A stretch of 32,000 nucleotides of DNA, from assembly GCF_003945235.1 (NCBI RefSeq), contig NZ_RSDW01000001.1, forward strand, positions 3,840,001-3,872,000. Direction: 5' to 3'. This stretch comes from Edaphobacter aggregans (GTDB taxonomy: Bacteria > Acidobacteriota > Terriglobia > Terriglobales > Acidobacteriaceae). Position 1 is the stretch's first letter; each line of letters starts with the position of its first letter. A program made the position numbers and the translations under genes. The notes beneath the pieces were generated by a model. That model ran no database searches, was not told the DNA's origin, and saw only the letters and a program-made list of their open reading frames with translations. Below, one piece after another: positions 4,748 to 32,000 of the stretch.

Positions 4748-4867
4748 CGGTTTCCTTTGCTTTGGATGGTACATTTTTCGCCGAACTTGAGGCTTGATTT
4801 GCGTGGCTGTGTGGCCGGATGCCGCGCCCGCGCCGTGTGTCCGTTTGCGCTGGTAGACTTTAAGTCT

Positions 4868-7897: not shown

Positions 7898-10297
7898 GTG
7901 GCGATGATCGTGTGCAAGACAATGCGAGGACGATGGGTGTGGTGCGCCGTTTGCGCGGCCGGGTTGGGTTGTGGGGTTGCGCTGGGGGCCATGCAGGCCA
8001 AGGCTAAAGGCTCTTCGGGGCAGAGGCGCGTCGCTGAGATGTCTCCGTGGGAGCAGGCTACGCAGGGGCGCGAGGCGCTGGAGGCTATTCCTGACGGTTC
8101 GCGGACGAAGGCGGACTACGCGCGCGCGATGGATGGGTACAGGGCGATCTATCATGAGACTCCGCAGAGCCAGTATGCGGCGGCTTCGGTGAATGCGGTT
8201 GCGGAGCTGCTCGCCGAGCAGGGGCGAGGGTTGCAGGATGCGAAGAGCTTGAAAGCTGCGGTGGGGCAGTATGAGTTTTTGCGGACGCAGTATCCGGGGA
8301 GTTCGCTGCGGGTGGGCGCGCTGCTGGCCGAGGCTCAGATTTATGAGAACGATCTGCATGATGCGACGGCCGCGAAGGAGAAGTATGCGCTGCTGGTGAA
8401 GCAGTATCCGCGAAGCTCGCAAGCGGAGGAGGCTCGGGCGGGACTGGATTCTTTAGAGCAGGGAACAGGGAGTAGAGAAGAGGGAATAGCGGATAAACAG
8501 CAGAGGCCAGGACAGAGCGCGGCTGCTGCGAGTGCGGAAGATAAGGCTGGAGCGAGTTCGTTTGCGCCTATGCCAGTGACTCGGAGTGCTGGCTTACCCG
8601 CTGCACAGAATCGAGCGGCGGTCGTGGGGCCGAGCGCAGGCGATTCGGCTGCCGCTTCGTCTGCGAAGGTGGCTTCGGGGAACACTTCGAATGATGCGGA
8701 TGCAGCAGAGCGGCGAGGGACTTCGAATCCGATGGATGAGGCTTCGGATGGCGCGGAACAGAATGCGGTGGTAGGGCTTTCGCATGTGGCGAAGAACGCT
8801 GGTGGGAAGCGCAAGGGGTTTGCGCAGGTGACGGGGATTCGGCACTGGTCGACGCCGAACTATACGCGGGTGGCGATCGACCTGGGCGACGATGTGACGT
8901 ATGAGGCGGCGCGGGTTCCGCATCCGGACCGCATCTATTTTGATCTGCATGGGACGCGGCTGGCGCAGGAGTTGGTGGGGAAGAGCTTTGCGGTTACGGA
9001 CGATGGCTTTTTGAAGAAGATTCGTGCGGCACAGTTTTCGAACGATGTGACGCGGGTTGTGCTGGATGTGAATGATGTGACGGAGTACTCGGCGTTTTTA
9101 CTGCCGAATCCTTACCGGCTGATTATTGATATTCATGGTGGGACTCCGCTGCAGGCGGGAGCGAGTAAAGATCAGACGGCGGGCTCGCAGGCGACGAATG
9201 CTGATGAGGTTCCGGCTCCTCGGACGGCGGCTGCGGGAAAGACTGCGCCGGGGCGGCCGGTTCCGAATACGGTGGCGACGAGGAATGCAAGCACGGCGAT
9301 CGATGTTGCGGCGTTGAGTGATCAGCCCGGCAAGGTGGAGGCGACGAGTGTACCGACCTCGCGGCCAATTGCAGCGGTAGTTCCGGAAACAGGGGGCAGG
9401 GAAGAGGGAGTAGGGAGTAGTAAGCAGACTGCTGATGTCGCGGCTACTCCGACTGCGGGTTCGGGTTCTAGTTTGAGTTCGCGGAAGGGGAAGAAGGGTG
9501 CGGCTGTGGTTGATCCGGCGGCTCCAGCTCGGGCTGCAGTGCCTACGGCGGATGGTGAGACGTCGCTGGTGCGGGCGCTGGGGTTGAAGATTGGGCGTAT
9601 CGTGATCGATGCCGGGCATGGTGGGCACGACTCGGGCACGCTGGGTGTCGACGGGTTAGAAGAGAAGGACGTTGTGCTGGATGTCGCGCTGCGGCTGGGA
9701 AAGATACTGCATGATCGGCTAGGCGCGGAGATTATTTACACGCGGTCGGATGATACGTTCATTCCGCTGGAGACGCGGACGGCGATTGCTAATAAGTCGC
9801 AGGCGGATTTGTTTTTGAGTATTCACGCGAACTCGTCGAGTGACGCGAGCGCGCGTGGAGTGGAGACTTACTATCTGAACTTTACGTCGCAGCCGGATGC
9901 TTTGGAGGTTGCGGCTCGTGAGAATGCGGTGAGCGATCAGTCGATCCATCAGCTGAGCGATTTGGTGAAGAAGATTGCGCTGAAGGAGAAGATCGATGAG
10001 TCGAGGGAGTTCGCGAGCGATGTGGAGACGAGTCTGTATGGCGGGTTGCAGAAGGGCAATGCGGGGCTGAAGAATCGCGGGGTGAAGAAGGCTCCGTTTG
10101 TCGTGCTGATTGGTGCGAATATGCCTTCGATCCTGGCGGAGATTTCGTTTGTGACGAATCCAAAGGATGCGAGGCAGTTGCGTCAGACTGATTATCGTCA
10201 GCGGGTGGCGGAGAGTTTGTACAAGGGTGTCGCGAAGTATGCGGGTGGGTTGAGTGGGGCGAAGGTTTCGTCGGAGCGGGCGAGCAACGACAAATAG
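7898..10297 (+). CDS. N-acetylmuramoyl-L-alanine amidase (TPR-like N-domain + AMIN domain + Amidase_3 domain)
   Basis: C-terminal IVIDAGHGGHDSG...LFLSIHANSS...GVETYYLN...KAPFVVLIGANMPSILAEISFVTNP is an Amidase_3 catalytic domain. Central VTGIRHWSTPNYTRVAIDL...YRLIIDIHG is an AMIN domain. The N-terminus has a signal peptide and TPR/YbgF-like helices. Start is GTG 7898, ATG 7904 or ATG 7922. Confidence 0.9.
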   Translation: MAMIVCKTMRGRWVWCAVCAAGLGCGVALGAMQAKAKGSSGQRRVAEMSPWEQATQGREALEAIPDGSRTKADYARAMDGYRAIYHETPQSQYAAASVNAVAELLAEQGRGLQDAKSLKAAVGQYEFLRTQYPGSSLRVGALLAEAQIYENDLHDATAAKEKYALLVKQYPRSSQAEEARAGLDSLEQGTGSREEGIADKQQRPGQSAAAASAEDKAGASSFAPMPVTRSAGLPAAQNRAAVVGPSAGDSAAASSAKVASGNTSNDADAAERRGTSNPMDEASDGAEQNAVVGLSHVAKNAGGKRKGFAQVTGIRHWSTPNYTRVAIDLGDDVTYEAARVPHPDRIYFDLHGTRLAQELVGKSFAVTDDGFLKKIRAAQFSNDVTRVVLDVNDVTEYSAFLLPNPYRLIIDIHGGTPLQAGASKDQTAGSQATNADEVPAPRTAAAGKTAPGRPVPNTVATRNASTAIDVAALSDQPGKVEATSVPTSRPIAAVVPETGGREEGVGSSKQTADVAATPTAGSGSSLSSRKGKKGAAVVDPAAPARAAVPTADGETSLVRALGLKIGRIVIDAGHGGHDSGTLGVDGLEEKDVVLDVALRLGKILHDRLGAEIIYTRSDDTFIPLETRTAIANKSQADLFLSIHANSSSDASARGVETYYLNFTSQPDALEVAARENAVSDQSIHQLSDLVKKIALKEKIDESREFASDVETSLYGGLQKGNAGLKNRGVKKAPFVVLIGANMPSILAEISFVTNPKDARQLRQTDYRQRVAESLYKGVAKYAGGLSGAKVSSERASNDK

Positions 10298-19134: not shown

Positions 19135-19210
<76 letters not shown>

Positions 19211-19244
19211 TTCCTTTCAATAATTTAGAGCTATTTTTCGTAGG

Positions 19245-19284: not shown

Positions 19285-20340
19285 TCAACCCGCCTTCAAA
19301 AGGTGTAGCGAGTTGGAGTGATTTCTGCGATTGACTACCGCTGCAGCCCCGCTGGTATCGGGGTGCAGATACTTCATGGTCGTCTTGATGTCCTCGTGTC
19401 CCATGAGTTCCTTAACCTCGACTACGTTCAGGCCCTCGGCGAGCATGTCAGTGGCGAAAGTGTGACGGGCACAGTACAGTTTCAGGTCCGACGAGATCGG
19501 CTGCAGCTTTTGTTTTGCGTTCGCGAGATTGGCGGCCTTGACAGTCGCTCTCCATTGTTTGGAGATGGTCGTCAAGTGCCCGCACTTCGCCCGCCTCGAT
19601 GGGAAGATCCAAGGGCTGCCGCTAGACTCGCGCAGGCGCAGTAGATCGCGCATGCGATCACTCAATGGAACGTAGCGCTTGGATTTGAAACTCTTACCGT
19701 ACGGCACCAAGACGACGGAGCGGGCCCAAAAGATGTGCTCCTTGCGGATCCGCATGGCTTCTTCGGGGCGCATTCCAGAATCCATCATGATAATCAGGAC
19801 ATCAGTGAGCGGTTGGGAGGCGTGCTTAAGCAGCAATGCCTCGGTGGATGATTCGACCAGCGCCGTACGCCCGTGCTCCTCGAGCAGTTTGATGCGCGGT
19901 GCGGCCCGCATTATGTTCCAGTCCACCGCGATCCGCAGCATACGGTGCAGAGTGCGGAGGGCCCGGTTGGCGTTGGAGGCACTGTGGGGGAAAGTGAGGA
20001 TTGCGGCGTCGCTGGTACCGATCTGATCGATACGCATTCCTGCCACTCTCGTCCCTTCCAGCATCTTCCATCCCCCGTGATAGTAGCGTTTCGTGTCGAG
20101 GTCCAGTTGGCCCGAGACCGCCTGCGCGTCCACAAATTCAAGGAAGCGATTTGAAAAGTCCCGGAGAACTGGTGCCCGCCGCGAGTTCAAGCTGCCACCA
20201 TTGTTGCGGATATCCGCAATGCGGAGAGCCTCGAAGGTGTTGGCACGGGACTTAACCGTCTCCTTGGTGGTGCCCCGATACTTCCGACCATCGATCATGA
20301 ACTCGTAGTGCCAGTATTTACCGCGTTTAGTAATGGCCAT
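19285..20340 (-). CDS. tyrosine-type site-specific integrase
   Basis: Start at ATG 20340 (MAITKRGKYWHYEF...) with a GGAGAG RBS. The C-terminal catalytic region is YCARHTFATDMLAEGLNVVEVKELMGHEDIKTTMKYLH (R, HxxR, Y). The gene is adjacent to the tRNA 3' end. Confidence 0.92.
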   Translation of the reverse strand: MAITKRGKYWHYEFMIDGRKYRGTTKETVKSRANTFEALRIADIRNNGGSLNSRRAPVLRDFSNRFLEFVDAQAVSGQLDLDTKRYYHGGWKMLEGTRVAGMRIDQIGTSDAAILTFPHSASNANRALRTLHRMLRIAVDWNIMRAAPRIKLLEEHGRTALVESSTEALLLKHASQPLTDVLIIMMDSGMRPEEAMRIRKEHIFWARSVVLVPYGKSFKSKRYVPLSDRMRDLLRLRESSGSPWIFPSRRAKCGHLTTISKQWRATVKAANLANAKQKLQPISSDLKLYCARHTFATDMLAEGLNVVEVKELMGHEDIKTTMKYLHPDTSGAAAVVNRRNHSNSLHLLKAG

Positions 20341-20341
20341 G

Positions 20342-20551
20342 CTATCTCTCCAGTGTTGCCCGCACGGATGGAAAGCGTCGGCCAGTTTCAACATACGCAA
20401 GTATGTCAACGGCATCATACTTCACTCGAGCCTTGGGTCCGTTGCCCATCTTGATGTAGGGTGGTCCGTCGCCGACGCAACGCCACCGTCGCAGCGTCCC
20501 CATGGGGGTCGCAAGGATTTCGGAGACCTGTCTCTCTGTGAGCAGCTGCAT
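20342..20551 (-). CDS. AlpA/Xis-type helix-turn-helix DNA-binding protein (putative excisionase/regulator)
   Basis: MQLLTERQVSEILATPMGTLRRWRCVGDGPPYIKMGNGPKARVKYDAVDILAYVE is a typical HTH_17/AlpA-like excisionase fold signature. Its stop is 1 nt from the integrase ATG. The start may instead be ATG 20635. Confidence 0.75.
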   Translation of the reverse strand: MQLLTERQVSEILATPMGTLRRWRCVGDGPPYIKMGNGPKARVKYDAVDILAYVETGRRFPSVRATLER

Positions 20552-21220
20552 CTCCCGTACCTGCTGAACTCGTTTTGTGCCGAACGGCTTTCGCCCTTCT
20601 CTCCCCCTGGCGCACTTATCCTCATGTGGCATCATGTGGGGTAATACCGTCTCCAGAGCCGGGACCCTCGATATTGCCTTCAGATCGTTAGACACTAGGA
20701 CCATGGAGCAGATGGCTATCGACCACATCCTGTTCAGCGACGCATCTCCACGCAAAGGTCCACCAAGTCTTCGTCGCATCAAATGCACGGACATGGCATG
20801 GGCGCATGGTCTCGATGACGGTGCAGATTTTGCGCGATTCGCTGCTCCTCCGGGTTAGCGAGGGTCTTCGGAGTGTTCGATTCGGCCCCGGTGATATCTG
20901 GCTAACATTTGACCGTCAGTATTTTCTTCTGTGTTTGCTTCGCGTGGGACGACGGTGAAACCATGAACGGCCATTCTTGAAATGCCCGCCCTCCGCTATA
21001 TATCACGACCAGATCGATGAGATCTCGAGAGCACACACATAATCCAATATGCCTTCACTGACGACGGTCCTGACGAGTGCCCGGTGAGGCAGTGTTCGCC
21101 TCTCGGGAATGCATCGTTGACTTGCAATCAATAGAGTCGCCTCCTGGGTCGTAAGGCCGATATGAGGGCCAACTCTACCTATTGGAGAAACCATGTCTGG
21201 TCGTTAGGAGACGTCTCGCG

Positions 21221-21907
21221 CTAGCGGCTGGAGAGACCGCGCTCAATTGCAGCGAGCAGTTCATCCCGCCCCAAGGTTCCGAGCTGCAGTTCGAGCTCGT
21301 CCGCGACTGATTCAACTGCGGCCCATACCGAATCGTTGTTTAAGATTGCGATGGCCTTGGCCTCCCACAGAAGCAACTGGTGATCGCGGACCTCATTGGA
21401 AAACTCAAGGGCAGAGTGGCACATAACCCGAACCAACAACTGGTTAACACGCCAGTAGTCACCGACGCAGCCTTCATCAATGATGATGTTGGACTCTGCA
21501 CGCAGGTCGACAAGAGATTCTCCACGGATCTTAGCCTCTGCCGCCGGACCCGCAATGTACATGACGGCATACTCGCCAGCACGTACCCTAGCTTCCCGAG
21601 TCCGGAATACGAAATTGGCGGTGTGAACAAACTTTAAGACGCGCCGATCGAGCTGCGTGACATCATTATCGATGTACATCGGCCTAAAACCGAGGAGGTG
21701 GGCGACCACCGCATGTGCGGCTTCGTGGTACCGCTTAAGCTTCCAATGGTAGTTGCTCTCTTCGAGTTCCGACATCTCTTCTAACGACAAAGGGTTCGTA
21801 CCATCGACCACGGTTTCATCCCCTACCGGTTTCGACTCGGGGGATGTAACAGGTTTAGGATCGGACAGGTGGGCGTGCAGACTGACCTCTTCAAGGTTCA
21901 GTGACAT
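21221..21907 (-). CDS. stand-alone FtsH-type (peptidase M41-like) zinc metalloprotease domain protein
   Basis: 228 aa, AGGAG 9 nt upstream. YHEAAHAVVAHLLG (HExxH, cf. FtsH HEAGHA), then MYIAGPAAEAKIRGE (cf. FtsH GGRAAEE) and GCVGDYWRVNQLLVRVM (cf. FtsH GAxNDxxxATxxARxMV). No AAA+ module and no TM segment. Confidence 0.65.
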   Translation of the reverse strand: MSLNLEEVSLHAHLSDPKPVTSPESKPVGDETVVDGTNPLSLEEMSELEESNYHWKLKRYHEAAHAVVAHLLGFRPMYIDNDVTQLDRRVLKFVHTANFVFRTREARVRAGEYAVMYIAGPAAEAKIRGESLVDLRAESNIIIDEGCVGDYWRVNQLLVRVMCHSALEFSNEVRDHQLLLWEAKAIAILNNDSVWAAVESVADELELQLGTLGRDELLAAIERGLSSR

Positions 21908-22096
21908 CTCAAAGGACTCCTATTCGGTTTTGTATGCTCAGCGCCTCGAGCACATGAGGGGTAATACACCGACAGGTGTCCGAATGCGTATATCTTGGAA
22001 ACTATTTTTCGAAAGAGCGAAGCTGTCGGGACAGGTGCTCTGATGGTGCCGAATAAAGGATTTCTGGTTTGATCGTGGGTGCAGCGACCTCCGGGC

Positions 22097-23806
22097 TTAC
22101 GTTTTCTTCCAGGTCTCCCCTACTGCCGTCTCTACCTCGACGGGAACTTGGCCGCTGAGCAGTTGATCGGCGGCACGGACCATCGTATCCACGACGGCTT
22201 GTTCGACTGCCGTAGCTTGGTTCACCGGAACCTCCAACACCAGTTCATCGTGCACCGGCATCAGGAGCATGGCTGCTACGTCCTCCGGTAGCGACGCAAT
22301 CGCCAATGCAAGAATGTCCGCTCCGGTTCCCTGGTTTTGGTAATTTAATGCACGTCGAAGGTCATTCAGTATTGCAAACGGGCGGCCCGACAGGGTACTC
22401 GTCTCATAGACCTTGACGCCATGACGACCGGGATTGACCAACCTTGCTTCATATGGATTCCAGAGAACGCATGCGTTCGGAATGACCTTGCGGAACCGTT
22501 CGAAATTGGTCCACCAATGCCAGATCCGAAATTCGGGATAGAGCTCAAACCAATCGTGACGGGCTTGTGCGGCTTCCTCTAAGCTCCATGTCAGCCCGAA
22601 CGTGGCGATACCACTTCGGTGTAAGCCTCCTGCACCCATGCCATAGAGCAAGCCGAAGTTGACCGCCTTCGCTCGTTGTCGTTCTTCATGTAACTGTGCC
22701 TTCAGCTCACTCTGAGTTTGACTATCTCTTGCCGCGAGCCATTCGACCGGATTCGCTCCGCAGTCGATCCTTCCTTGGCGTCGGGCCATATCGATGCCTG
22801 TAACCATGTGGGGGTCGAGGCCACGGCGGAAGATCGATATCATCATTTGAATATCGCTGCAAAGGACGGCCTGGGATACGGCAGGTATAGCCGCTCTATA
22901 CCAATCGAGTTTTTCGGCATCAGGCTCCGGCGGACAGAGGAGCTGTTGATTAGATCGCATACCCGCTCTAGCGAGAGCCACCCACCAGTTGGTGGGTTCT
23001 TCCTGAACCCGTAGGCGAAGATCGGCCCGCTCAGCCAGAACCGCAGCTATCCGCAACTCGATCGCGGCATAGTCGGCAGAAAGGATGAGATGGCCAGCCC
23101 GAGCGCGAAAAAGGTCTCTGAATCGAGGATCGCGTGGCACGTTTTGAACTGTGGGCCAGGCGCTCGTGGTACGCCCCGTCGCCGCTGCGAAACCAATTAA
23201 TGAATGGAGTCTTCCATCGAACTTTGCCGCACGTTGGTATTGCTCCAGTAAGCGGACCCTGAACTTGTTCTCCTTTATCGCCTCCAGCATGGGGCCCGGT
23301 GGTAGATTCTCGATGTTCTGGGCATTCAACCCGTCCAGACCTGTGCTATGCGAACTAACCTGGTTCTGAGACAGAGAGATGCCGTGGGTTGCTACATGTT
23401 CGGCCAGTGCACGCTTCAGTTCCGCAGTTTCGCCGATCCGGGTGTCAGTCAGCGGTTTCCCCAGAGCGGAAAATTCAGAAAATTTCGTTAGATCTTGTAC
23501 AGACCGCTCAAGATCGTCGATGCACTTGGATCGGATCTTCAAACCCGCTTCCACATCAAACGGGACGCCTTTGCTGTGGGCTTCTGCGAGCCGAATAGCT
23601 GCCCGGCTATATGAGAAATACCAGGGAGCCTGGTGTCGGATGTAGGAGGGCATGTCCAACACGCTTGTGTCCGCTATCAAGGTCCGGAGAATCCGGATCG
23701 GCAGTTTAACTCTTTTCGCCAGGTAGGCGCGGTGGTGGGCGGAGAGAACACTGACACACCAGTTCCTATGGGCTTGATATTCCTTGTCAGGCACTCCCAG
23801 CCTCAA
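22097..23806 (-). CDS. family A DNA polymerase-like protein, polymerase domain only (no exonuclease domain)
   Basis: GRLHSLIGFAAATGRTTSAWPTVQNVP; motif A LSADYAAIELRIAAVLAE; LDPHMVTG; motif B RQRAKAVNFGLLYGMG; motif C MPVHDELVLEV. The listed start is TTG 23806; GTG 23794 or ATG 23653 are alternatives. Confidence 0.85.
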   Translation of the reverse strand: MRLGVPDKEYQAHRNWCVSVLSAHHRAYLAKRVKLPIRILRTLIADTSVLDMPSYIRHQAPWYFSYSRAAIRLAEAHSKGVPFDVEAGLKIRSKCIDDLERSVQDLTKFSEFSALGKPLTDTRIGETAELKRALAEHVATHGISLSQNQVSSHSTGLDGLNAQNIENLPPGPMLEAIKENKFRVRLLEQYQRAAKFDGRLHSLIGFAAATGRTTSAWPTVQNVPRDPRFRDLFRARAGHLILSADYAAIELRIAAVLAERADLRLRVQEEPTNWWVALARAGMRSNQQLLCPPEPDAEKLDWYRAAIPAVSQAVLCSDIQMMISIFRRGLDPHMVTGIDMARRQGRIDCGANPVEWLAARDSQTQSELKAQLHEERQRAKAVNFGLLYGMGAGGLHRSGIATFGLTWSLEEAAQARHDWFELYPEFRIWHWWTNFERFRKVIPNACVLWNPYEARLVNPGRHGVKVYETSTLSGRPFAILNDLRRALNYQNQGTGADILALAIASLPEDVAAMLLMPVHDELVLEVPVNQATAVEQAVVDTMVRAADQLLSGQVPVEVETAVGETWKKT

Positions 23807-23908
23807 CGAGAATGCGGCCCGATAAAAATCGTCTGCCTATCGACGCCCTTCATTTATGCCATTCCGCGTTCGTATTCGGACCGCCCACATGAAAAGAAGC
23901 CCACCGTA

Positions 23909-24727
23909 GTGGATCACGGTACGTTGCTTATGGTCGTTCTCGTCGCCATCGCATTGTTGATGGGACTTCGGAGCGACTGGGCCCTTCGAATCGTAACGAT
24001 TGGGGTTGGTCTTCCAACCTTTTTCGTGATGCGCAACATGATCAAGAGGTATCGTGACTGGTCGCTGAAGCTTAGTGGGTCGACGGTGCCCCGCATAGAG
24101 CTTCCATCCGGGTCTCTATTGTTCCTACGCTTCCTTGCCGACGAAGCTACTTTCGCGCTCATTACTTTCCAGTCCATTCAATATGCATTTGTCCGTATCG
24201 CGAAGGCGCAGGCACAGCTGATCGAGAACACCGGCGATATTCTGCGATATCTCGTGGGCAAGTGGAGTGGCTTCTTCTCGCTGTTTCTTATAGTGGCGGG
24301 GGGAACACTTGGCATTATCCTGCTTTATTTAGTCTCTCTGATCAGCGTGTTTGTTGGTGCGCGACATCCGGTCGATGCGGACTGGCTTGCACCGCACAAT
24401 CCATACTCCGTTGTTGTCCTTATTCCCGTCATGCTTGCGCCCGCAATCATCTTCTTTCTCATGTTGCTCACGCTGTTCCTGATGGTCCTCAACATCGTCT
24501 TATACGTCTTGATGCCACTGGCGGGCGCAAAGGTATTCGGCTGGCGCCTTGCGGCATCCTCCGTCTTCAACGAAATCACCGTTGAATCCGCTCCGCTCGG
24601 CACCTGGAGCCTGCTCACACTGTTCCCACTGCCGGGAGATGTCTGGTTGCGGCACAGCATGGGTTACGAAGATCCGAATGCCAGACAGCAAGTGGTGACA
24701 TTTATCATCGAAAATCTCAAGGCGTAG
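23909..24727 (+). CDS. polytopic membrane protein, unknown function
   Basis: Divergent from the polymerase-like gene. About 5 TM helices (LLMVVLVAIALLMGL, IVTIGVGLPTFFV, FFSLFLIVAGGTLGIILLYLVSLISVFVG, VVVLIPVMLAPAIIFFLMLLTLFLMVLNIVLYVLMPLAG) plus soluble loop and tail regions. Start is uncertain (GTG 23909 or ATG 23930, both with weak RBS); the listed 23633 start is antisense to the polymerase gene. Confidence 0.5.
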   Translation: MDHGTLLMVVLVAIALLMGLRSDWALRIVTIGVGLPTFFVMRNMIKRYRDWSLKLSGSTVPRIELPSGSLLFLRFLADEATFALITFQSIQYAFVRIAKAQAQLIENTGDILRYLVGKWSGFFSLFLIVAGGTLGIILLYLVSLISVFVGARHPVDADWLAPHNPYSVVVLIPVMLAPAIIFFLMLLTLFLMVLNIVLYVLMPLAGAKVFGWRLAASSVFNEITVESAPLGTWSLLTLFPLPGDVWLRHSMGYEDPNARQQVVTFIIENLKA

Positions 24728-25806
24728 ATGCCGAAATCAACACGGTTCCATCCTCGAATCTTCTTGGACGCCGAAAATCCTACCGGAATCGCGTACCTTT
24801 CTGAAAGGTCTTCGCGAGGTCGTTGAACGATAGGTTCACGAAGGTCCACAACTGCGCCTGTTTACTCCTGCGGATTGGGTGCTTTGTTTGTTTCCGTAAC
24901 TGCCCCGATAATGGCTCGCTGAACGATCGGGAAATCGGGTTGCCGGATGACATAGATTCAAAGATGCTTGCCAGCAAAACCCCAACTACATCTCTTTACC
25001 GAAATCGATCTTGGTTGTCAGACCCGCCAGATCTAATACCCGACTTGCACACCGCCTACTCAGCAAACTCATGAAGGTTGGAGATTTTTCCTCCGGCGGT
25101 ATAAACGATACGAATCATGCGAACAAATCGCCGCCATGGGGTTGCCCTGTTTTCGCCTGTACTCCTGATCAGTTCCCGGAGTTGATGGCCGCAGCGTTGA
25201 CATGTCAGGATATCTCTCAGTGGGCCGCAGCGTGGGATATCGCACTGGTTCGCGGAGCCCTTATTCGACAGATTTCGGTGGTCCGCAATCTGTAGGTTGG
25301 GAAACAGCAGACGTCCACGAAAGCGCCTATCGATATAGGCGGCAGAACCGGTTCGACGCGATAAAAAGGGCCGTGAAATGACGCGAACAGTAGCGAGCAG
25401 TCGGTGACTACAATTCGCTTCGCTTTTCAATAATTCGTGGCTTGTCTTCGCGAATTCTATTGACTTTCCTGAAGCTGCAGAGCAATATTCCCAGCTAAGC
25501 TATCTACTCCTCCCTCTTACAGCTTCCAGCGTCATCCCCCGGAATTTGGGCTATGGGCCACTTATCCGTTTAGAAAGTCTCGACCCTCGGTGGAAGTGCC
25601 ATGGAATATCGTCACCGTCTTATGCGGATTCCGAGAACCCCTCGAAGCAGCGAGTCCGGATGCGCCGTGCCTCGGAGGCTTCTGGGACTGATGCGCCTCA
25701 AGGAAGATGCTCCAACCAATCTCGGAACGAATCTGAGCTTATCGTATGCTCGTGGGTCGGCCCTGCAACGATTCTCCCAACAGTTCGCGAAATTGGAGGG
25801 AGAGAG

Positions 25807-27453
25807 ATGAGCGCGTTTACTTCAACAAAATATTCGTCGATACTTCTCTTTCTTATCCTGTTTGCATGCGCTTCCCAGGTTATCGCACAGGTCTATCAGA
25901 TCACTGATCTCGGCACACTGCCCAGTCAAACTAGCAGTTCTGCTGTGGGAATTAATCAGCTTGGGCAAATCGCCGGAAGTTCGGGGAATCACGCATTCCT
26001 CTACTCGAATGGAACGATGACGGACCTGGGCTTTTTGCCAGGCTCGAATCAGGCGAGCGCTTCCGCAATCAACAACAGCGGGCAAATTGTTGGAACTTAT
26101 GGCCTAACAACCTTGCAAGGTCGAACGCTGGGATTCCTCTGGGATAGCGGCGTCATTTCGGATCCCTTCAATTCCGCCGCCTACATTAATGGCCAATTTG
26201 AAACGCAAGGCTTCGAGCCGGTCGCTATAAATGACAACGGCCAGGTCGCGGTAAATCTAGCCTCGAACGGCAATTCTACTGCCTTACTCTGGCAAGTCTC
26301 CGGAAACCAAATCACGACGCTCTCCTCTGGAGGCAGCACCGCGTACGCGATCAACAATGTCCCGCAGGTATCTCTCGTCGATAGGCCGTCCTACGCATTT
26401 GGCGCGATTTGGAGTTTAAGCGGAACAACTGTCTTGCCGACCTTATATCCCCCCTTGGCAGGATATGGACCGACGCCATATGGAATCAACCAGAACGGAC
26501 AAGCCGTCGGGGAGTCTTATGCCAATAGTCAGGCGCAGATACATGCCTTCCTGTGGAGCAACGGTACGATCAGCGATCTCGGTACACTTGGGGGCGCGAA
26601 CAGCACAGCCAGGGCAATCAACAGTACAGGACAGCAGATCGTCGGAGATTCCGACCAGAATCCGAATACGGCAACTACCCAGAATCGGCGTGCATTTCTT
26701 TACGCCAACGCCAACATGTTGGACCTCAACTCGCAGGTCGCCAATATTTTGGGTTGGGAGCTGCAATCAGCTGTCGGCATCAATGACTCAGGGCAAATCG
26801 TAGGGAATGGCACCTACCTTGGTAATGCGCACGCTTTTCTCTTGACTCCTATAATTCAGGGCACCGTATCTCCAATACAGGGCGGCAATGCCGGCAATGT
26901 TACGTTGAACGTGTTTTATCCGGGAACCATGCCTACTTCAGTGGATCTGGCGTGTGCTGGAGGCACGACGATTGTGGGCGGTGTTCCGGTTCCGATAAGT
27001 TCCAACTTCGTCCAGGTGACCTTTAATCTGACCGGAGTAACTCCTGGTGCCTGCAGCGTTGTTCTCAACGAACCGGGAGGGAGTATTCTCACTACTCCCA
27101 ATGCTTTCACGGTAGTTCAGGGCGGTGCACCCGACATCCGAATCAGCGTCGCAGGATTTCCTCAACTTCGAGCGGGGTTGCCGGAGACCTACTATATCGT
27201 GGCCGAGAATGTTGGGAACGTCGATTCCGGTTCTGTTCGGATCTGGGTTTCGTTCCCAAGCTTTCTGCAATGGCAGCCAGCTGGTGTGCAGCCAAGCTCA
27301 AGTGGCGCAATGAACGGAAATACTTTTGTAGCTTTCGACATTCTTCCGAAGGCGAGTTCTAATAATCCAATTCCTTTTCTGCTGACAGCTCCCGTCAGCT
27401 CAAATTTGGTGCATAAGCCGTTTCAGATTCAGGCATGGAAGCTGGGGCAATGA
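25807..27453 (+). CDS. exported HAF-family repeat protein with C-terminal CARDB-like domain
   Basis: ATG 25807 with GGAGGG 6 nt upstream; signal peptide MSAFTSTKYSSILLFLILFACASQVIAQ. Repeated units such as AVGINQLGQIAGSSGNHAFLYSNGTMTDLGFLPGSNQASASAINNSGQIVG match the extracellular HAF repeat pattern. Confidence 0.8.
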   Translation: MSAFTSTKYSSILLFLILFACASQVIAQVYQITDLGTLPSQTSSSAVGINQLGQIAGSSGNHAFLYSNGTMTDLGFLPGSNQASASAINNSGQIVGTYGLTTLQGRTLGFLWDSGVISDPFNSAAYINGQFETQGFEPVAINDNGQVAVNLASNGNSTALLWQVSGNQITTLSSGGSTAYAINNVPQVSLVDRPSYAFGAIWSLSGTTVLPTLYPPLAGYGPTPYGINQNGQAVGESYANSQAQIHAFLWSNGTISDLGTLGGANSTARAINSTGQQIVGDSDQNPNTATTQNRRAFLYANANMLDLNSQVANILGWELQSAVGINDSGQIVGNGTYLGNAHAFLLTPIIQGTVSPIQGGNAGNVTLNVFYPGTMPTSVDLACAGGTTIVGGVPVPISSNFVQVTFNLTGVTPGACSVVLNEPGGSILTTPNAFTVVQGGAPDIRISVAGFPQLRAGLPETYYIVAENVGNVDSGSVRIWVSFPSFLQWQPAGVQPSSSGAMNGNTFVAFDILPKASSNNPIPFLLTAPVSSNLVHKPFQIQAWKLGQ

Positions 27454-27902
27454 CGATGCTTAAGACCCTCGCCCTGACATGTCGTGCTATGCAGTTTGCT
27501 TTTTTTGCCTCCTCCGTGAGCTTTTCGATGCTTGCCTATGCTCAAGATCCGAACGTCTTCACGGTCAATCAAGGCGGCGCTCCCAACATCCAGATCAGTA
27601 TTGCCGGATTCCCGCAGCTTAGGGCGGGGCTGCTTGAAACTTGCTATGTCCTGGCCGAAAATCGTGGCAACGACGACTCCGGCATCGTTCGGATTTGGGT
27701 AGCGTTTCCGGACAACCTGCAATGGCAGTCCGTAGGCGTGCAGCCCAGCTCTATCGGTGACATGAATGGAAACACGTACCTCGCCTTCGACATCAGTCCG
27801 GCACTCGGTGGCAATGTTCCAATCCCTTTCCTACTAGCTGCTCCTTTCAATTCCTATCTGGCACACAAACCCTTTCAGATTAGCGCGTGGGTAAATCAAC
27901 AA
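27100..27902 (+). repeat. tandem paralogous ~350-bp coding modules (27100-27450 and 27549-27902)
   Basis: The last 113+ aa of the HAF protein and the mature part of the next ORF align without gaps. By hand alignment, 80 of 113 residues are identical (e.g. QGGAPxIxISxAGFPQLRAGL.ET.Y..AEN.GN.DSG.VRIWV.FP..LQWQ..GVQPSS.G.MNGNT). Confidence 0.8.
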
Positions 27903-27905
27903 TGA
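27450..27905 (+). CDS. small exported CARDB-like protein (paralogue of the HAF protein C-terminus)
   Basis: ATG 27450 overlaps the upstream TGA (ATGA, 27450-27453). Signal peptide MTMLKTLALTCRAMQFAFFASSVSFSMLAYA. The remainder is the duplicated module. Confidence 0.7.
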   Translation: MTMLKTLALTCRAMQFAFFASSVSFSMLAYAQDPNVFTVNQGGAPNIQISIAGFPQLRAGLLETCYVLAENRGNDDSGIVRIWVAFPDNLQWQSVGVQPSSIGDMNGNTYLAFDISPALGGNVPIPFLLAAPFNSYLAHKPFQISAWVNQQ

Positions 27906-30211
27906 AGATGCCCTCATTTTTAGCCGCGCTGACCGTCATTATTACTAATGTGTTGATTTGCTTCCAAGGAATATGTCAACCACCATTGGGTCTAACCTGT
28001 ACTGACGCGGCAAGTTGTCCGTGGAGAGAGCCGACAGAACAACCTCTTTGTACGAATTTCACGGATGGATCCCCTGAGGACGTAGTACGCCAACAGCTTT
28101 ATTACGCATCAATTCGCGTCAACAAATGTCCGTGCGATGCTGACGGTGATGAGAATTGCACAGACGTGAAAAAACTAATGGCAACAACAATCACAAACCT
28201 CATTGTTTTCCAATCGGAGCATCTCGCTCCTCTTGTGCTCACAGGAGGATCGGAGCTAGATAATCATCATGATGCTGGTCTATACAGCCACCCCAATGGG
28301 TACAAGGCCGATCTTCAAGACGCTGACGGTTCGGTGAAGAACTCGCTTTTGCCCTTTATCCAGAAATATTTCGATCGGCTGTACCCGAATCGAGGAGATT
28401 CATGTGAAATTTGGGGGATGTATCAGTATGACCCATCTGATCCTGGCCCGCAATTCGCGTATGAGGATTCATACTGCGACAGCACATTACACATCGACAT
28501 TGTATTCCCGCCGGTGCCTCTGGCGAACGTTACACTGACCGTCAGTGGAACAGGAACGGGACAGGTCACGGCGAGTCCTTCGACCGTATGCGTGGGCTGC
28601 GGCTCCATCTATGTCACGAAGGGGATGAACGTGAACATAGCCGCAATACCAGACGCAAGTTCCGTCTTTGACGGCTGGGTCGGAACGATACCCGCAGGCA
28701 ATTGCGCGACGAGCGGCGAAGATTGCATCAACGGAGCTAATGCCACAATCTTTGCGGATGGATCACGGACAGTCACTGCAATCTTTGACCTTTTGCCGCC
28801 TCCCCCTCCAGGCGGCTTCGGATGCTGGGTTTGGGATGCCACATTGGGTAATCAAGGAGGGTACAAATGGACTTGCACAAGTCCTTCTCCCCCAGCAGGT
28901 GGAGGTGTTCAGCCACAAGTAGGTTGTTGGCATTGGGACCCTAACTCAGGCCCATTCGGTGCGTGGCTCCGTGATATTTGCGGTGGGGGCTGCGGTCTGA
29001 ATCTTACGACTGGCTTGCCCATGGTGTACTGCCCTCCGGGAGGCATCTTCGGAGGCAAAATCATCGAGCCAGGCGATCCAAACGACAAGGGCGGTACTCA
29101 GGGAACTGGATCGCAGCAGTATGTAGCTGCGTCGACTCCATTGCTCTATGCCATCTCTTACGGGAACGAAGCGACCGCCAGTGCAAATGCGCAGACGGTC
29201 GTGATCACTGATCCTCTAAACACATCAGTTGACGACCTCACCACCTTCTCGTTTGGCCCAATCTCCGTTGCCGGTCAAACACTCTTCCCACCGCCGGGCA
29301 CAACGTACTCGACAACCATTGATATGCGACCCGGAACAAATCTCCTGGTCGGAGTTAATGCTCGTTTAGACTCGAACGCCGGAATCGCTACCTGGAGGTT
29401 TACTTCCATCGACCCCGCTACTGGATTGCCCACAACCAATCCAACCGCCGGCTTCCTGCCTCCGGGTGCAAATGGCAGCGTTTTCTTCACCGTGATGCCC
29501 AAGCAGAATGTGACTAGCGGAACCCAGATCCAGAACCAGGCCACCATCGTCTTCGACGCCAATCCTTCCATGAACACTCCGACCTGGTTGAACACGTTCG
29601 ACGTAACTGCGCCAGCGAGCCAAGTTCAAGCCCTTCCATCAACTGAAATGTCCAGCAGTTTTGTCGTCCAATGGCAGGGCACCGACATCGGCTCCGGCGT
29701 TCAGGACTACACCGTCTACGCATCGGTCGATGGCGCAGCCTTCGCTGTGTGGCTGACGAATACGGCAGCGACATCTGGCACGTGGACCGGACTAGCAGGG
29801 CATGCGTATAGTTTCTACAGCCTCGCTCGCGATCTCGTGGGAAATGTTGAAGCTGCCAAGACCTCGGCCGAGGCAACCACGATAGTCAGCACGCTCTCGA
29901 ACGTGACCTCGTCGGTAAAGGTCACGAGTACGGGATTCCTCTACAGCCGCGCCACTCGCACATACAATGGAACCATCACCGTGACAAACGTAAGCGGTTC
30001 TGCGATTTCGGGACCTCTCCAGATTGGTTTTGGGGGATTGCCTGGAGGCGTCACGCTAACGAATGCAACTACGGCGAATGATGGCATTCCCTTTGTCACC
30101 CTGCCTGCCGGACTTGCGCCAGGACAATCCACGGCCTTTACAGTGCAGTTCGGCGACCCATCTAACTTGAGCATTACCTATTCACCGATCGTCTATTCGG
30201 GAGCGTTTTGA
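27902..30211 (+). CDS. large exported multidomain surface protein (769 aa)
   Basis: ATG 27902 overlaps the upstream TGA (ATGA), followed by a hydrophobic leader MKMPSFLAALTVIITNVLICF. Domains in order: Cys-rich N-domain; a bacterial-repeat (InlB-B-like) segment VTLTVSGTGTGQVTASP...FDGWVG...; a GDPNDKGG-initiated beta-sandwich region; an Fn3-like segment (FVVQWQGTDIGSGVQDYTVYASVDG); and a terminal Ig-like domain. Confidence 0.8.
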   Translation: MKMPSFLAALTVIITNVLICFQGICQPPLGLTCTDAASCPWREPTEQPLCTNFTDGSPEDVVRQQLYYASIRVNKCPCDADGDENCTDVKKLMATTITNLIVFQSEHLAPLVLTGGSELDNHHDAGLYSHPNGYKADLQDADGSVKNSLLPFIQKYFDRLYPNRGDSCEIWGMYQYDPSDPGPQFAYEDSYCDSTLHIDIVFPPVPLANVTLTVSGTGTGQVTASPSTVCVGCGSIYVTKGMNVNIAAIPDASSVFDGWVGTIPAGNCATSGEDCINGANATIFADGSRTVTAIFDLLPPPPPGGFGCWVWDATLGNQGGYKWTCTSPSPPAGGGVQPQVGCWHWDPNSGPFGAWLRDICGGGCGLNLTTGLPMVYCPPGGIFGGKIIEPGDPNDKGGTQGTGSQQYVAASTPLLYAISYGNEATASANAQTVVITDPLNTSVDDLTTFSFGPISVAGQTLFPPPGTTYSTTIDMRPGTNLLVGVNARLDSNAGIATWRFTSIDPATGLPTTNPTAGFLPPGANGSVFFTVMPKQNVTSGTQIQNQATIVFDANPSMNTPTWLNTFDVTAPASQVQALPSTEMSSSFVVQWQGTDIGSGVQDYTVYASVDGAAFAVWLTNTAATSGTWTGLAGHAYSFYSLARDLVGNVEAAKTSAEATTIVSTLSNVTSSVKVTSTGFLYSRATRTYNGTITVTNVSGSAISGPLQIGFGGLPGGVTLTNATTANDGIPFVTLPAGLAPGQSTAFTVQFGDPSNLSITYSPIVYSGAF

Positions 30212-30212
30212 C

Positions 30213-30902
30213 GTGAGACTAGCATCGTTGAAGGAACTAATTGTGCGATCTCTGCCGACTATGGGATTGTTGACACTCCTCGGAATGTTTTCTACCGGCG
30301 GCCCCGCGTGGGCAGACCCGCTTTCGTATCTGGTGACGATCAACACATCGACGATCAACGGTACCTCGGGAAATCTGGATCTGCAATTCAATCCTGGGGC
30401 GCTTCCCGGCACGCAATCAGCCACCGCGACGGTCCAAGGATTCGCTTCCGACGGAACCCTTGGAACTGCGGGGCTAACAGGCGACGTTGCTGGAACGCTG
30501 CCCGGCACACTGTCATTCGACAATCAGACCGTATTCAATGATGACTTTCAGGCGATCGTATTTGGCAACACCATTCAGTTCAATTTGGTTCTATCCGGAC
30601 CTGCGGTGCTGACTCCCGATGGCATCTCAACTTCGGGCAGCAGCTTCGGCATTGGACTGTGGGACAGCACCGGCTTCAATCCGCTCCTGACGTCGGACCC
30701 GAACGGCTTCGCAGGGATCGTGAACATTAACCTCGATGGAAGTGGAACGGCGACCATTTTCCTCACTGATGCCGGTGGTCCACCCGTGGTGACTGTCACA
30801 CCGGAGATAGCCTCCACCGTGCCGGAGCCGGGTAGCATACTGCTATTCGGAACCGGGCTGACGGCAATGATCAGAATCGTTCGCAGGGGACTTCGAGGGT
30901 AG
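30213..30902 (+). CDS. PEP-CTERM sorting-signal protein
   Basis: C-terminus VPEPGSILLFGTGLTAMIRIVRRGLRG has PEP, a TM helix and a basic tail. N-terminal signal peptide. GTG 30213 is 1 nt after the upstream stop; ATG 30261 is an alternative. Confidence 0.85.
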   Translation: MRLASLKELIVRSLPTMGLLTLLGMFSTGGPAWADPLSYLVTINTSTINGTSGNLDLQFNPGALPGTQSATATVQGFASDGTLGTAGLTGDVAGTLPGTLSFDNQTVFNDDFQAIVFGNTIQFNLVLSGPAVLTPDGISTSGSSFGIGLWDSTGFNPLLTSDPNGFAGIVNINLDGSGTATIFLTDAGGPPVVTVTPEIASTVPEPGSILLFGTGLTAMIRIVRRGLRG

Positions 30903-31184
30903 AGACTGAGTCAGGACCGGCAGGTTTCCAGCAGTTGGCAGGCCTGTGATCTGTTTCACGACGGTGTACGAAGACAGTCCTCTCAGAGAAAATGGGGAGC
31001 GAGCGCGGTATGGTCACCTGATCGACGGGCGCGGATACCGTGTATGGTCCTCAACCTGTAGGTCGTTGACCACCTCGAAGTCTCCTTCTTCGGCGCCGTT
31101 TATCAAAGACTTATCGACCCCCTGACGCGACCCCTTATTCACCACCGAGCAACCGCTACCATAGGATGAAAGGTGAGGAAGCCT

Positions 31185-31214
31185 ATGTCATCGAACCAAA
31201 TGTCATCGAACCAA
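31185..31214 (+). repeat. perfect 15-bp tandem duplication including the start codon
   Basis: ATGTCATCGAACCAA occurs twice in tandem (31185-31199 and 31200-31214), giving MSSNQMSSNQ. Confidence 0.9.
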
Positions 31215-32000
31215 ACTTCTGCACCTCGTCAGCACGCATCCACTGGACCTACGCTGCCGCCACTACCCGAACCGAGCCACGCTGAGCGTGTCCGGACCCT
31301 CATGTCACTGGCCTCAGTTGCCACCCTATCGACGCTTTCCCGCAAGCACCCGGGCTTTCCCTTCGGTTCGCTGATGCCCTTCGCTCTCGATTCTTCCGGT
31401 CGGCCCATCTTCTTCATCAGCAATATGGCCATGCACACTCAGAATCTGAAGAGCGACCAGCGATGCAGCCTCTTCGTTGGGCAAGTAGCTGCCGATGGGG
31501 ATGCACTTGGGGCCGCAAGGGTGACCCTGATAGGCACCGCCGAACCCATGGCCCAGAACGACATAGTTGACGCTCGGGAGAAATACCTCGCTCGCCATGA
31601 GAATAGTCGCTACTGGGTTGACTTCGCAGATTTCAGCTTCTTCCGACTCCAGCCCATCGATGTCTACTACATCGGTGGCTTTGGCGTGATGGGTTGGGTC
31701 GAGGCGCGAGACTATGAACAAGCCGCTCCAGACCCGCTGGCCGGGGCCGCTCCTGGCATTCTGGCGCACATGAACGCTGACCATGTCGATTCGATGATCC
31801 TGTTGGCGCGGTCTCATGCAGGAATCGAAGCGACAGAGGTGGCTATGACCTCTGTCGACCGCCTGGGTTTCTCTCTTCGATTGAAGACCCGTGAAGGAAT
31901 GAAAGGTACTCGCATCAACTTCAACCATGAGGTAGTCACTCCGCAGCAAACTCGGGCAGTGCTCGTTGAGATGGTGCGTCAAGCCAGACTCGGAGCGTAA
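31185..32000 (+). CDS. pyridoxamine-5'-phosphate-oxidase-fold protein with C-terminal DUF2470 (HugZ/HOZ-like heme-binding family)
   Basis: Split-barrel region (VATLSTLSRKHPGFPFGSLMPFALDSSGRPIFFISNMAMHTQNL...RCSLFV...RVTLIG) followed by a DUF2470-like tail (ILAHMNADHVDSMILLAR...VDRLGFSLRLKT). GAGGA RBS before ATG 31185 (listed GTG 31173 is less likely). The TAA stop is at the last bases of the window. Confidence 0.75.
   Translation: MSSNQMSSNQTSAPRQHASTGPTLPPLPEPSHAERVRTLMSLASVATLSTLSRKHPGFPFGSLMPFALDSSGRPIFFISNMAMHTQNLKSDQRCSLFVGQVAADGDALGAARVTLIGTAEPMAQNDIVDAREKYLARHENSRYWVDFADFSFFRLQPIDVYYIGGFGVMGWVEARDYEQAAPDPLAGAAPGILAHMNADHVDSMILLARSHAGIEATEVAMTSVDRLGFSLRLKTREGMKGTRINFNHEVVTPQQTRAVLVEMVRQARLGA

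Follow-up and report, generated by a model that had tools for sequence, protein, structure and literature searches.

Probable remnant of a decayed integrative element at a tRNA-Thr gene of Edaphobacter aggregans, carrying truncated polymerase and membrane-protein genes and an M41-like peptidase gene

The polymerase and membrane-protein genes and their relatives

We analyzed a stretch of 32,000 nucleotides of the Edaphobacter aggregans chromosome (contig NZ_RSDW01000001.1, positions 3,840,001 to 3,872,000; hereafter the window), centered on three neighboring open reading frames (ORFs). EDE15_3215 encodes an M41-like peptidase (pep, or pep228), EDE15_3216 a family-A DNA polymerase (pol), and EDE15_3217 a hydrophobic protein with putative transmembrane segments (TM). 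A previous sequence-only reading had proposed that the three form an undescribed synthase, protease, and membrane-effector system with defence-like logic. All the ORFs it described were recovered at the same positions, and the source of the DNA is clear from the polymerase ORF, which is 100% identical to the NCBI entry 'DNA polymerase [Edaphobacter aggregans]' on a 6.15-Mb contig. Our analysis leads us to a different reading, which we hold with good confidence: the locus represents no new system but the integrase-proximal part left over from a mosaic, decayed integrative element at a tRNA-Thr gene. The features on which this reading is built are the following (window coordinates; L007 is a sister contig with a related island).

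19135 to 19210, plus strand: tRNA-Thr(CGT), integration site of the island (attL side), adjoining the integrase gene (ARAGORN; Rfam tRNA, 75.5 bits)
19285 to 20418, minus strand: tyrosine integrase (Pfam Phage_integrase, 8e-24; PHROG integrase, 2e-42; 91% identical to the L007 integrase)
20342 to 20794, minus strand: Xis/HTH_17 excisionase-like gene (Pfam HTH_17, 3.5e-4; PHROG excisionase; 56% identical to the L007 gene)
21003 to 21194, minus strand: 63-aa ORF of doubtful reality, with no family match and absent as a conserved gene from every pep-bearing locus
21221 to 21907, minus strand: pep228, M41 (FtsH-type)-like peptidase, an intact, stand-alone domain
21908 to 22012, minus strand: region upstream of pep, conserved with the gene (75% DNA homology with locus L001 over window 21227-22012)
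22097 to 23815, minus strand: 5'-truncated family-A DNA polymerase fragment, equivalent to residues ~231-804 of ~804-aa relatives (ORF 22097-23806)
23816 to 23821, between the two truncated genes: putative deletion or rearrangement joint, with polymerase homology up to 23815 and TM-family homology from 23822
23822 to 24727, plus strand: 5'-truncated fragment of a hydrolase-TM family gene (annotated as a 272-aa ORF from the GTG at 23909)

The order pol, pep, Xis-like gene, and tyrosine integrase on the minus strand, as previously read, was reproduced in our analysis. The polymerase ORF matches Pfam PF00476 (E = 1.4e-40, 139.9 bits against a cut-off of 34.3) and carries the three motifs of family-A DNA polymerases, namely motif A 'SADYAAIELR' at 243, motif B 'NFGLLYGMG' at 383, and motif C 'VHDELV' at 518. 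The thumb, palm, and fingers are intact, and Exo I and Exo II are missing, also in agreement with the previous reading. Of the N-terminal 3'-5' exonuclease domain (Exo I-III) that characterizes Pol I and the 804-aa clade, only a degenerate Exo III region, 'YLAKRVKL', is left.

A set of 454 polymerase homologues was compared with this ORF. Those with 40-57% identity are ~800 aa long wherever the contig is long enough, and several have a PF01612 3'-5' exonuclease domain. The alignment of the window polymerase to these ~800-aa relatives begins only at their residue 231-234, and a tblastn search of the whole window with their N-terminal 230 residues gave no match. The break at ~231 cuts inside the exonuclease domain and not at a domain border, since it falls between Exo II (159) and Exo III (261) of the 804-aa type, in which Exo I is found at residue 73. 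The protein had been described as 'exo-less', and because the truncation runs through the exonuclease domain this trait does not represent an architecture. It should be noted that polymerase homology does not stop at the first possible start codon but extends upstream as far as the joint, and that no Shine-Dalgarno sequence precedes the TTG of the ORF.

Three further homologues of 694-715 aa (P0053, P0056, and P0058, e.g., from Terriglobus sp.) share only the C-terminal palm and fingers, from reference position ~420-480, and their N-terminal 330-380 residues are unrelated. The N-terminal part of the polymerase clade thus appears to be modular. The DxE motif of Exo I is kept in only ~1/3 of the long polymerases, as estimated with a crude regular expression. 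Identity of the window polymerase to actinophage Pol I is only ~25%, and to PolA proteins of IMG/VR at most 34%.

The hydrophobic ORF (23909-24727, plus strand) encodes at least three strong hydrophobic segments and belongs to a family with 34 representative clusters at E < 1e-3. Many members have N-terminal extensions, the match starting at residues 90-250 of proteins of up to 498 aa, and the closest homologue, P0134 (399 aa), shows alpha/beta-hydrolase signatures at its N-terminus. In tblastn searches, the homology of three TM homologues to the window sets in at position 23822; the aligned part of these proteins begins at residues 59, 37, and 80, where the motif 'IKIVCLSTPFIYAIPRS' is found. 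The window gene therefore lacks 36-79 N-terminal residues, which in its three closest homologues precede the aligned region. Position 23822 lies 87 nt upstream of the annotated GTG, and upstream of any start codon. The divergent multi-TM ORF of the previous reading is thus present, with its hydrophobic segments, but is itself a 5'-truncated fragment abutting pol within 6 bp.

On the other strand, homology to polymerases stops at 23815, leaving 6 nt between it and the TM homology at 23822. Both genes have thus lost their 5' ends at one point. These alignments are most simply explained by one deletion or illegitimate recombination event that left its joint at 23816-23821, and the supposed divergent promoter region consists of coding remnants. 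No polymerase or peptidase gene was found at the P0134 locus, no TM homologue was found in the L007 sister island, and TM homologues were absent from all pep and pol loci. In one locus (L010), a metallophosphatase and an integrase neighbor a TM homologue.

Next to full-length polymerases, our analysis identified a conserved replication module. Full-length relatives were sampled from four independent lineages (L003/L004, L005/L006, L031, and L032), and in 4/4 of them a D5-type primase-helicase is encoded beside the polymerase. In L003/L004, L005/L006, and L031, the polymerase gene overlaps the stop codon of a 771-802-aa primase-helicase with DUF3854, D5_N, and DUF5906 domains (PHROG 'DNA primase', E down to 6e-108), an 81-104-aa ORF precedes the primase-helicase, and a tyrosine integrase gene lies within a few kb after the polymerase. 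The L003 element adjoins tRNA-Pro. In L032, an Acidithiobacillus lineage, a DUF3854 protein is encoded divergently from the polymerase, and no tyrosine integrase was called within the 22.7-kb locus. The acidobacterial module (small ORF, primase-helicase, overlapping ~804-813-aa polymerase, and integrase) occupies the following positions.

L003, 744 to 7388
L005, 7441 to 17442
L031, 7285 to 20236

By the sequence-only reading itself, a polymerase-like gene that routinely sits in complete prophage replication modules would speak against the proposed system, and the relatives of the polymerase are indeed routinely found in replication modules of mobile elements. In the window, tblastn with the relatives' proteins detected no primase-helicase or other backbone remnant, and the D5/P4-alpha-type primase-helicase adjoining the polymerase that would mark a self-replicating element is absent. 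Among the ORFs of the window that were scanned, none encodes a primase, helicase, capsid, or conjugation protein, as had been noted before. Our searches of the literature returned no description of PolA-encoding integrative elements in Acidobacteria.

The peptidase and its genomic contexts

Taken alone, pep228 had no match in Pfam (E up to 0.1), NCBIfam, PHROG, or PADLOC, and it did not pass the PF01434 model. A profile of three close homologues reached nine more proteins, three of which (P0128, P0130, and P0131) carry PF01434; in the remote member L009 the precomputed PF01434 match is 'faint'. In the 12-sequence alignment of the family (A3), residues Y60, H61, E62, A63, H65, A66, V67, A119, G120, A123, and D150 are invariant. 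FtsH proteases show the pattern HExxH ... AGxAAE ... D, in which the Asp is the third zinc ligand, and the pep alignment reproduces this pattern, with H61, E62, H65, and D150 invariant in all 12 sequences.

The AlphaFold2 model of pep228 has a mean predicted local distance difference test (pLDDT) score of 80, with residues 1-36 predicted to be disordered. Each of its top eight Foldseek matches in the PDB is the protease domain of an FtsH, YME1, or FtsHi protein (probability 1.0, TMq 0.46-0.51, E 1e-3 to 3e-2), which identifies an M41 fold, and the best viral structure match (BFVD) is a Megaviridae 'Peptidase family M41' protein. UniProt already names pep228 'Peptidase M41-like protein'. The assignment of an M41-like HEAAH domain in the previous reading is therefore borne out by the profile links to PF01434 proteins, the structural matches, and the database name. 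The fused AAA+ module and N-terminal TM anchors of an FtsH holoenzyme are absent: pep228 is 228 aa long, with no AAA Pfam match and no hydrophobic segment. Judged from the model and the alignment, pep228 is a genuine, intact domain with an FtsH (M41)-like fold and an HExxH...D site, and is predicted to be a soluble zinc metallopeptidase.

The family is very rare: ~12 clusters were counted among 5.8 billion proteins, and 185,579 species genomes gave one true match. Scans of genomes and metagenomes with the pattern YHEA[GA]HAV were swamped by ordinary FtsH genes and were set aside. With the family-specific pattern IAGPAA[EQ]AK, 16 loci were obtained from genomes and none from IMG/VR; the single true homologue among the 16 is L028, which lies on the same contig as L001. 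No pep match was found in phage and plasmid collections, and literature searches on stand-alone M41 proteases on mobile elements returned nothing relevant.

We then compared the genes around pep in its independent lineages. The gene upstream of pep is an 804-type pol fragment in the window and L029, and a different PolA of 589 aa, with its own Exo I 'VLDAEF' and Exo III 'YCFGD', in L007 and L008. In L033, an HTH_36 protein and a 65-aa ORF are encoded upstream. In L001, the upstream neighbor is a CREG flank, with small ORFs and a large serine recombinase gene downstream, and in L002 it is a partial Abhydrolase_11 gene, with an integrase gene downstream. The remote member L009 has a GntP permease upstream and lies in a non-mobile context. 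A recombinase gene co-directional with pep lies <1 kb downstream in the window, L007, and L002. The distance to the recombinase gene is 1.5-8 kb in L001 and L008, and no such gene is visible in L033.

Adjacency of pol and pep was thus found in 2/5 independent lineages of the closer pep relatives, in none of the four lineages of 804-type pol (0/4), and not in L009. Three loci (L001, L002, and L033) have pep without any polymerase. An all-against-all comparison of the ORFs within 6 kb of pep found no gene but pep common to independent lineages. A hidden Markov model (HMM) of the pep family, run over all ORFs of 113 fetched loci (which include the four 804-type element lineages and 80 PolA-bearing IMG/VR contigs), found no further pep except one weak match in L059 (23.5 bits, 5.5 kb from a PolA). 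Pol-pep adjacency is not general, pol, pep, and TM show no conserved co-occurrence, and the linked pair proposed in the previous reading does not hold up, as no full-length 804-type element has pep.

The closest counterpart of the island as a whole is the L007 sister island (L007:3520-8755). It shares with the window both the tRNA-Thr insertion site and the adjoining GH28 gene, and its integrase, Xis, and pep are 91%, 56%, and 49% identical to those of the window. Its polymerase is non-orthologous, a compact 589-aa exo+pol PolA; a 274-aa ORF without a family match lies before this gene and overlaps it. The difference in polymerase shows module exchange at the slot upstream of pep. In L008, the same pol (85%) and pep (87%) as in L007 lie at tRNA-Val, with extra cargo (DUF5677 and a HATPase_c protein).

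Two further sets of relatives differ in how much of the locus they keep and, with the window, form a series of decay. L029/L030 share 96.2% DNA identity with the window over 21281-23178 only. Their pol is cut to 349 aa, with the thumb lost, and abuts a PLD-SNF2 helicase gene, and in their pep a 1-nt insertion leaves two parts of 143 and 82 aa. In L029:352-4517, a 960-aa PLDc_2 + SNF2 + Helicase_C protein and a metallophosphatase are encoded upstream of the polymerase fragment, a pairing that looks defence-like. In L001, a metagenome-assembled genome of Acidobacteriaceae, only ~280 nt separate pep from an orthologue of the CREG/PNPOx gene at the far side of the window (85% DNA and 88.6% protein identity), and no polymerase gene is present. 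In the window, 9.1 kb (22013-31152) intervene between pep and CREG, and this whole stretch is absent in L001.

The homology between L001 and the window comprises pep and ~105 nt upstream, ending before the polymerase stop codon. This same segment is the only part conserved among the window, L001, and L002, whose neighbors differ. The conservation of these ~105 nt suggests that pep travels with its own upstream region, and pep may have its own promoter within 21908-22012. L001 holds the closest pep homologue (68%), which in L001:10001-19626 is followed by three small ORFs and then a 610-aa large serine recombinase gene; a tyrosine integrase gene by a tmRNA gene lies 8 kb away. L001 looks like a different, possibly composite island using the classic tmRNA site.

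Limits and composition of the island

The presence of a tyrosine integrase and an excisionase-like gene by a tRNA gene, together with a foreign composition, identifies a tRNA-integrated genomic island, and on the related contig L007 this site likewise holds an island, with tRNA-Thr beside the 91%-identical integrase gene. The mechanically called ORFs of xis (150 aa) and int (377 aa) are probably too long. In L007, the integrase is called as 351 aa and begins right after the xis stop; the window integrase, too, probably starts at the ATG at 20340, which would give 351 aa and an overlap with the xis stop. Conservation of Xis with L007 is confined to the C-terminal ~70 aa, the L007 gene is called as 71 aa, and the DNA identity between window and L007 stops at window 20575; the true xis gene is likely to be 20342-20551.

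Third-codon-position GC skew (GC3 skew) marks foreign DNA very sharply in the Edaphobacter lineage. Host core genes of the window have values of +0.61 to +0.64 (alaS-like, 4757-7549; amidase, 7898-10297), and the plus strand overall has ~40% G and ~20% C. The skew falls to ~0 exactly at tRNA-Thr and stays near 0 or negative from the integrase gene to the end of the window. The host part of L007 shows the same extreme skew. The CREG flank (31173-32000) does not regain the host value. A promoter and terminator scan of 19.2-25.6 kb gave counts at or below the shuffled expectation.

Beyond the TM fragment, the window contains the following features.

24728 to 31152: rest of the variable, compositionally foreign region, with a non-coding stretch followed by genes for secreted/PEP-CTERM proteins (Pfam matches)
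25546 to 27453: DUF3466 gene (635-aa product), within the foreign region
27435 to 27905: 156-aa ORF following the DUF3466 gene
27887 to 30211: DUF7619 gene
30213 to 30902: PEP-CTERM gene
31173 to 32000, plus strand: CREG/PNPOx/DUF2470 gene (Pfam), conserved flank on the far side and last gene of the window

The DUF3466, DUF7619, and PEP-CTERM genes form a small secreted-protein cluster inside the foreign region. The 156-aa ORF duplicates the C-terminal domain of the 635-aa DUF3466 protein, next to which the DUF7619 and PEP-CTERM proteins are encoded, and a 253-nt direct repeat of 71% identity is present at window 27096-27348 and 27548-27800.

The far boundary of the island would lie at ~31153, as judged only from the position of the CREG orthologue. 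We also considered a degenerate right attachment site (attR) made up of a repeat (19215-19240 / 25425-25450) and a tRNA-like stretch (candidate 25383-25450), which was rejected, as its local-alignment score of 22 equals the median of 200 random host queries. An attachment site of the circular form (attP) inside pol, with integration splitting the gene, was ruled out as well: integrated relatives keep an unsplit pol (L003, by tRNA-Pro), and the gap between tRNA and integrase gene is only 74 nt here.

Origin of the locus and comparison with known systems

Taking these data together, the ancestor of the locus was probably a self-replicating integrative element. Its module, as in intact Acidobacteriaceae elements, would have consisted of a small ORF, a ~772-aa D5/P4-alpha-type primase-helicase, and a translationally coupled ~804-aa polymerase with an N-terminal 3'-5' exonuclease domain, often degenerate, with an integrase gene nearby. 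One deletion or illegitimate recombination (23816-23821) would have removed the first ~230 polymerase codons, together with the primase-helicase and everything beyond, and fused the remainder head-to-head to an equally 5'-truncated hydrolase-TM gene. Pol and TM would then be gene fragments without a native promoter or start, presumably non-functional, and not partners. The alternative offered in the sequence-only reading, a minimal self-replication and regulation module, is probably right as to origin, since the locus would be a leftover of such a module, but it is no longer a complete or minimal replicon.

The peptidase, under the same scenario, would be an autonomous accessory gene of integrative elements, which keeps its upstream region and catalytic residues while the DNA upstream is replaced or eroded. 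It may be co-expressed with the excision and integration genes and, rather than working with the polymerase, could cleave without ATP a specific, already accessible target, e.g., a regulator of the element or host.

Several observations weigh against this account of a decayed remnant. No second copy of the tRNA 3' 25-mer was found at up to 3 mismatches, so that no direct repeat marks the far boundary, and because no att repeat was found the exact island limits are undefined. The polymerase fragment is still an uninterrupted 569-codon frame with all catalytic motifs, and its ratio of nonsynonymous to synonymous substitution rates (dN/dS) is ~0.26 between the window and L029. In addition, four short homologues (P0055, P0060, P0063, and P0067) begin at reference positions 226-239, like the window copy, a hint that this boundary may be tolerated, or may recur, and does not stem from a random break. 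Finally, pol-pep adjacency recurs in L007/L008 with the non-orthologous 589-aa PolA; this recurrence, which speaks for the previous reading in part, is the best remaining argument for a functional pol-pep link.

Some of these points can be read in another way. Divergence between the window and L029 is ten times higher in the pol part than in the pep part, where only 3 substitutions occur; this gap suggests a mosaic history, so that dN/dS cannot date the loss of function, and the purifying signal of pol may predate the truncation. A natural short-form clade was considered and judged improbable, since the four short homologues fall into four sublineages and have long forms as their nearest relatives (e.g., 84% identity between P0067 and residues 251-888 of P0072). 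Start positions across all short homologues run continuously from 48 to 509, a spread largely explained by short contigs. As for the recurrent PolA-pep adjacency, we read it as probably reflecting position, with pep at the border of the replication and xis-int modules, and not partnership.

Among other explanations, pep228 might be the regulatory protease of the element, an ImmA/IrrE-like anti-repressor that would turn on excision and replication by cleaving a repressor. The gene is always found in integrative-element contexts, often co-directional with a nearby recombinase. In the window and L007, it is flanked by replication genes on one side and xis-int on the other, and in L033 it follows an HTH_36 protein. 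Its metal-binding residues are invariant, and the immR-immA-int arrangement of ICEBs1 is analogous. However, the fold is M41 and not M78, with no PF06114 match, there is no adjacent conserved helix-turn-helix (HTH) repressor and no conserved neighbor at all, and the remote member L009 lies in a non-mobile context. We therefore regard this explanation as unlikely.

It is also conceivable that pep228 was domesticated for host benefit, as a toxin, abortive-infection effector, or stress protease, while the element decays. The restriction of conservation among the window, L001, and L002 to pep and ~105 nt upstream would fit this, as would the defence-like genes (SNF2/PLD helicase and metallophosphatase) in the variable slot of L029. 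Against it, pep has no PADLOC match and carries a frameshift in L029, and the extreme rarity of the family argues against a broadly useful function. This makes domestication quite improbable.

The remaining alternative, in which a polymerase-domain-only protein and the M41-like peptidase form a functional, selected two-gene module for defence or element replication, with a dispensable N-terminal domain, is in our view very improbable: the open frame with intact motifs A, B, and C, the dN/dS of 0.26 against L029, the adjacency in two element lineages with non-orthologous PolAs, the mild cluster of short homologues starting at 226-239, and the weak PADLOC 'RTasPolA' match (34 bits) are outweighed by the three lineages with pep and no pol and the four with 804-type pol and no pep, the further truncation in the close relative L029, the homology that runs upstream of the first possible start to the joint, the missing Shine-Dalgarno sequence, the ties of each short homologue to long forms (P0067 vs. 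P0072), and the far higher scores of generic PolA models.

With respect to defence in general, pep and TM had no match among the PADLOC-DB v2 HMMs. The only match of pol was that to 'RTasPolA', at its C-terminus, which we treated as a family-level cross-match since generic PolA models score 140-165 bits. Literature searches on PolA in defence returned nothing relevant. With pol and TM as fragments, and with no conserved co-occurrence of the three genes, the proposed three-gene system finds no support.

More speculatively, pep could be a backbone gene of undescribed small Acidobacteriaceae integrative elements with interchangeable replication modules, and act as an ATP-independent regulatory protease for an excision/replication switch or for neutralization of a host factor. 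We consider this a long shot, and hold equally tentatively that the interchangeable modules would be the 804-aa PolA with primase-helicase, the compact 589-aa exo+pol PolA, and the HTH_36 Rep-like protein. If true, the recurrence of pep downstream of non-orthologous replication genes would reflect function and not chance.

If the locus is a decayed remnant, its exotic-looking architecture is explained by one deletion joint in a decaying mobile element, and there would be no case for pursuing it as a new defence system. It also serves as a caution that 'domain-minimal' island enzymes can be truncation products despite an open frame and intact catalytic motifs. On the other hand, Acidobacteriaceae have integrative elements with their own family-A polymerase coupled to a D5-type primase-helicase, and the very rare stand-alone FtsH-type domains on integrative elements could provide a simple model for an M41 protease working without an AAA+ unfoldase.

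Compared with known proteases, pep resembles the FtsH/YME1 protease domain (MEROPS M41, PF01434) in the motif string 'YHEAxHAV ... AGxAAE ... D', the Asp as third ligand, and the helical fold (Foldseek probability 1.0 and TM-score ~0.5 with 3kds, 6az0, 2dhr, and 8xks). It differs in having neither an AAA+ ATPase nor a transmembrane anchor, in its length of only 228 aa, in falling below the Pfam threshold, and in its location on mobile elements. PDB 5IQJ, a 134-aa Vibrio cholerae protein of unknown function, is likewise a short stand-alone M41-like domain, although much shorter than pep; it appears among the Foldseek matches after the top eight and is the best, marginal PDB sequence match ('LHESAHTVIAQVLGF', profile E 0.035). 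With ImmA/IrrE (M78), pep shares being a small HExxH metalloprotease encoded near and co-directional with the integrase of an integrative element, but it is an M41-like zincin with neither a PF06114/M78 match nor an adjacent cognate HTH repressor, and so falls outside that family.

As for the element itself, pipolins and casposons, which are self-synthesizing integrative elements, also encode their own replicative DNA polymerase beside a recombinase. Those elements use family-B, protein-primed or primer-independent polymerases. Here, in contrast, a family-A polymerase is paired with a primase-helicase, and the window copy is a non-autonomous fragment. P4-type and satellite-like elements are similar to this island in the tyrosine integrase by a tRNA gene, the Xis/HTH_17 gene, and the variable cargo slot, and to the intact relatives L003, L005, and L031 in their large DUF3854/D5_N/DUF5906 primase-helicase as replication initiator. 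The window copy differs from them in having lost the primase-helicase, with no capsid-related or helper-exploitation genes seen, and the intact relatives differ in adding to the P4-like plan their own ~804-aa family-A polymerase, translationally coupled to the primase-helicase.

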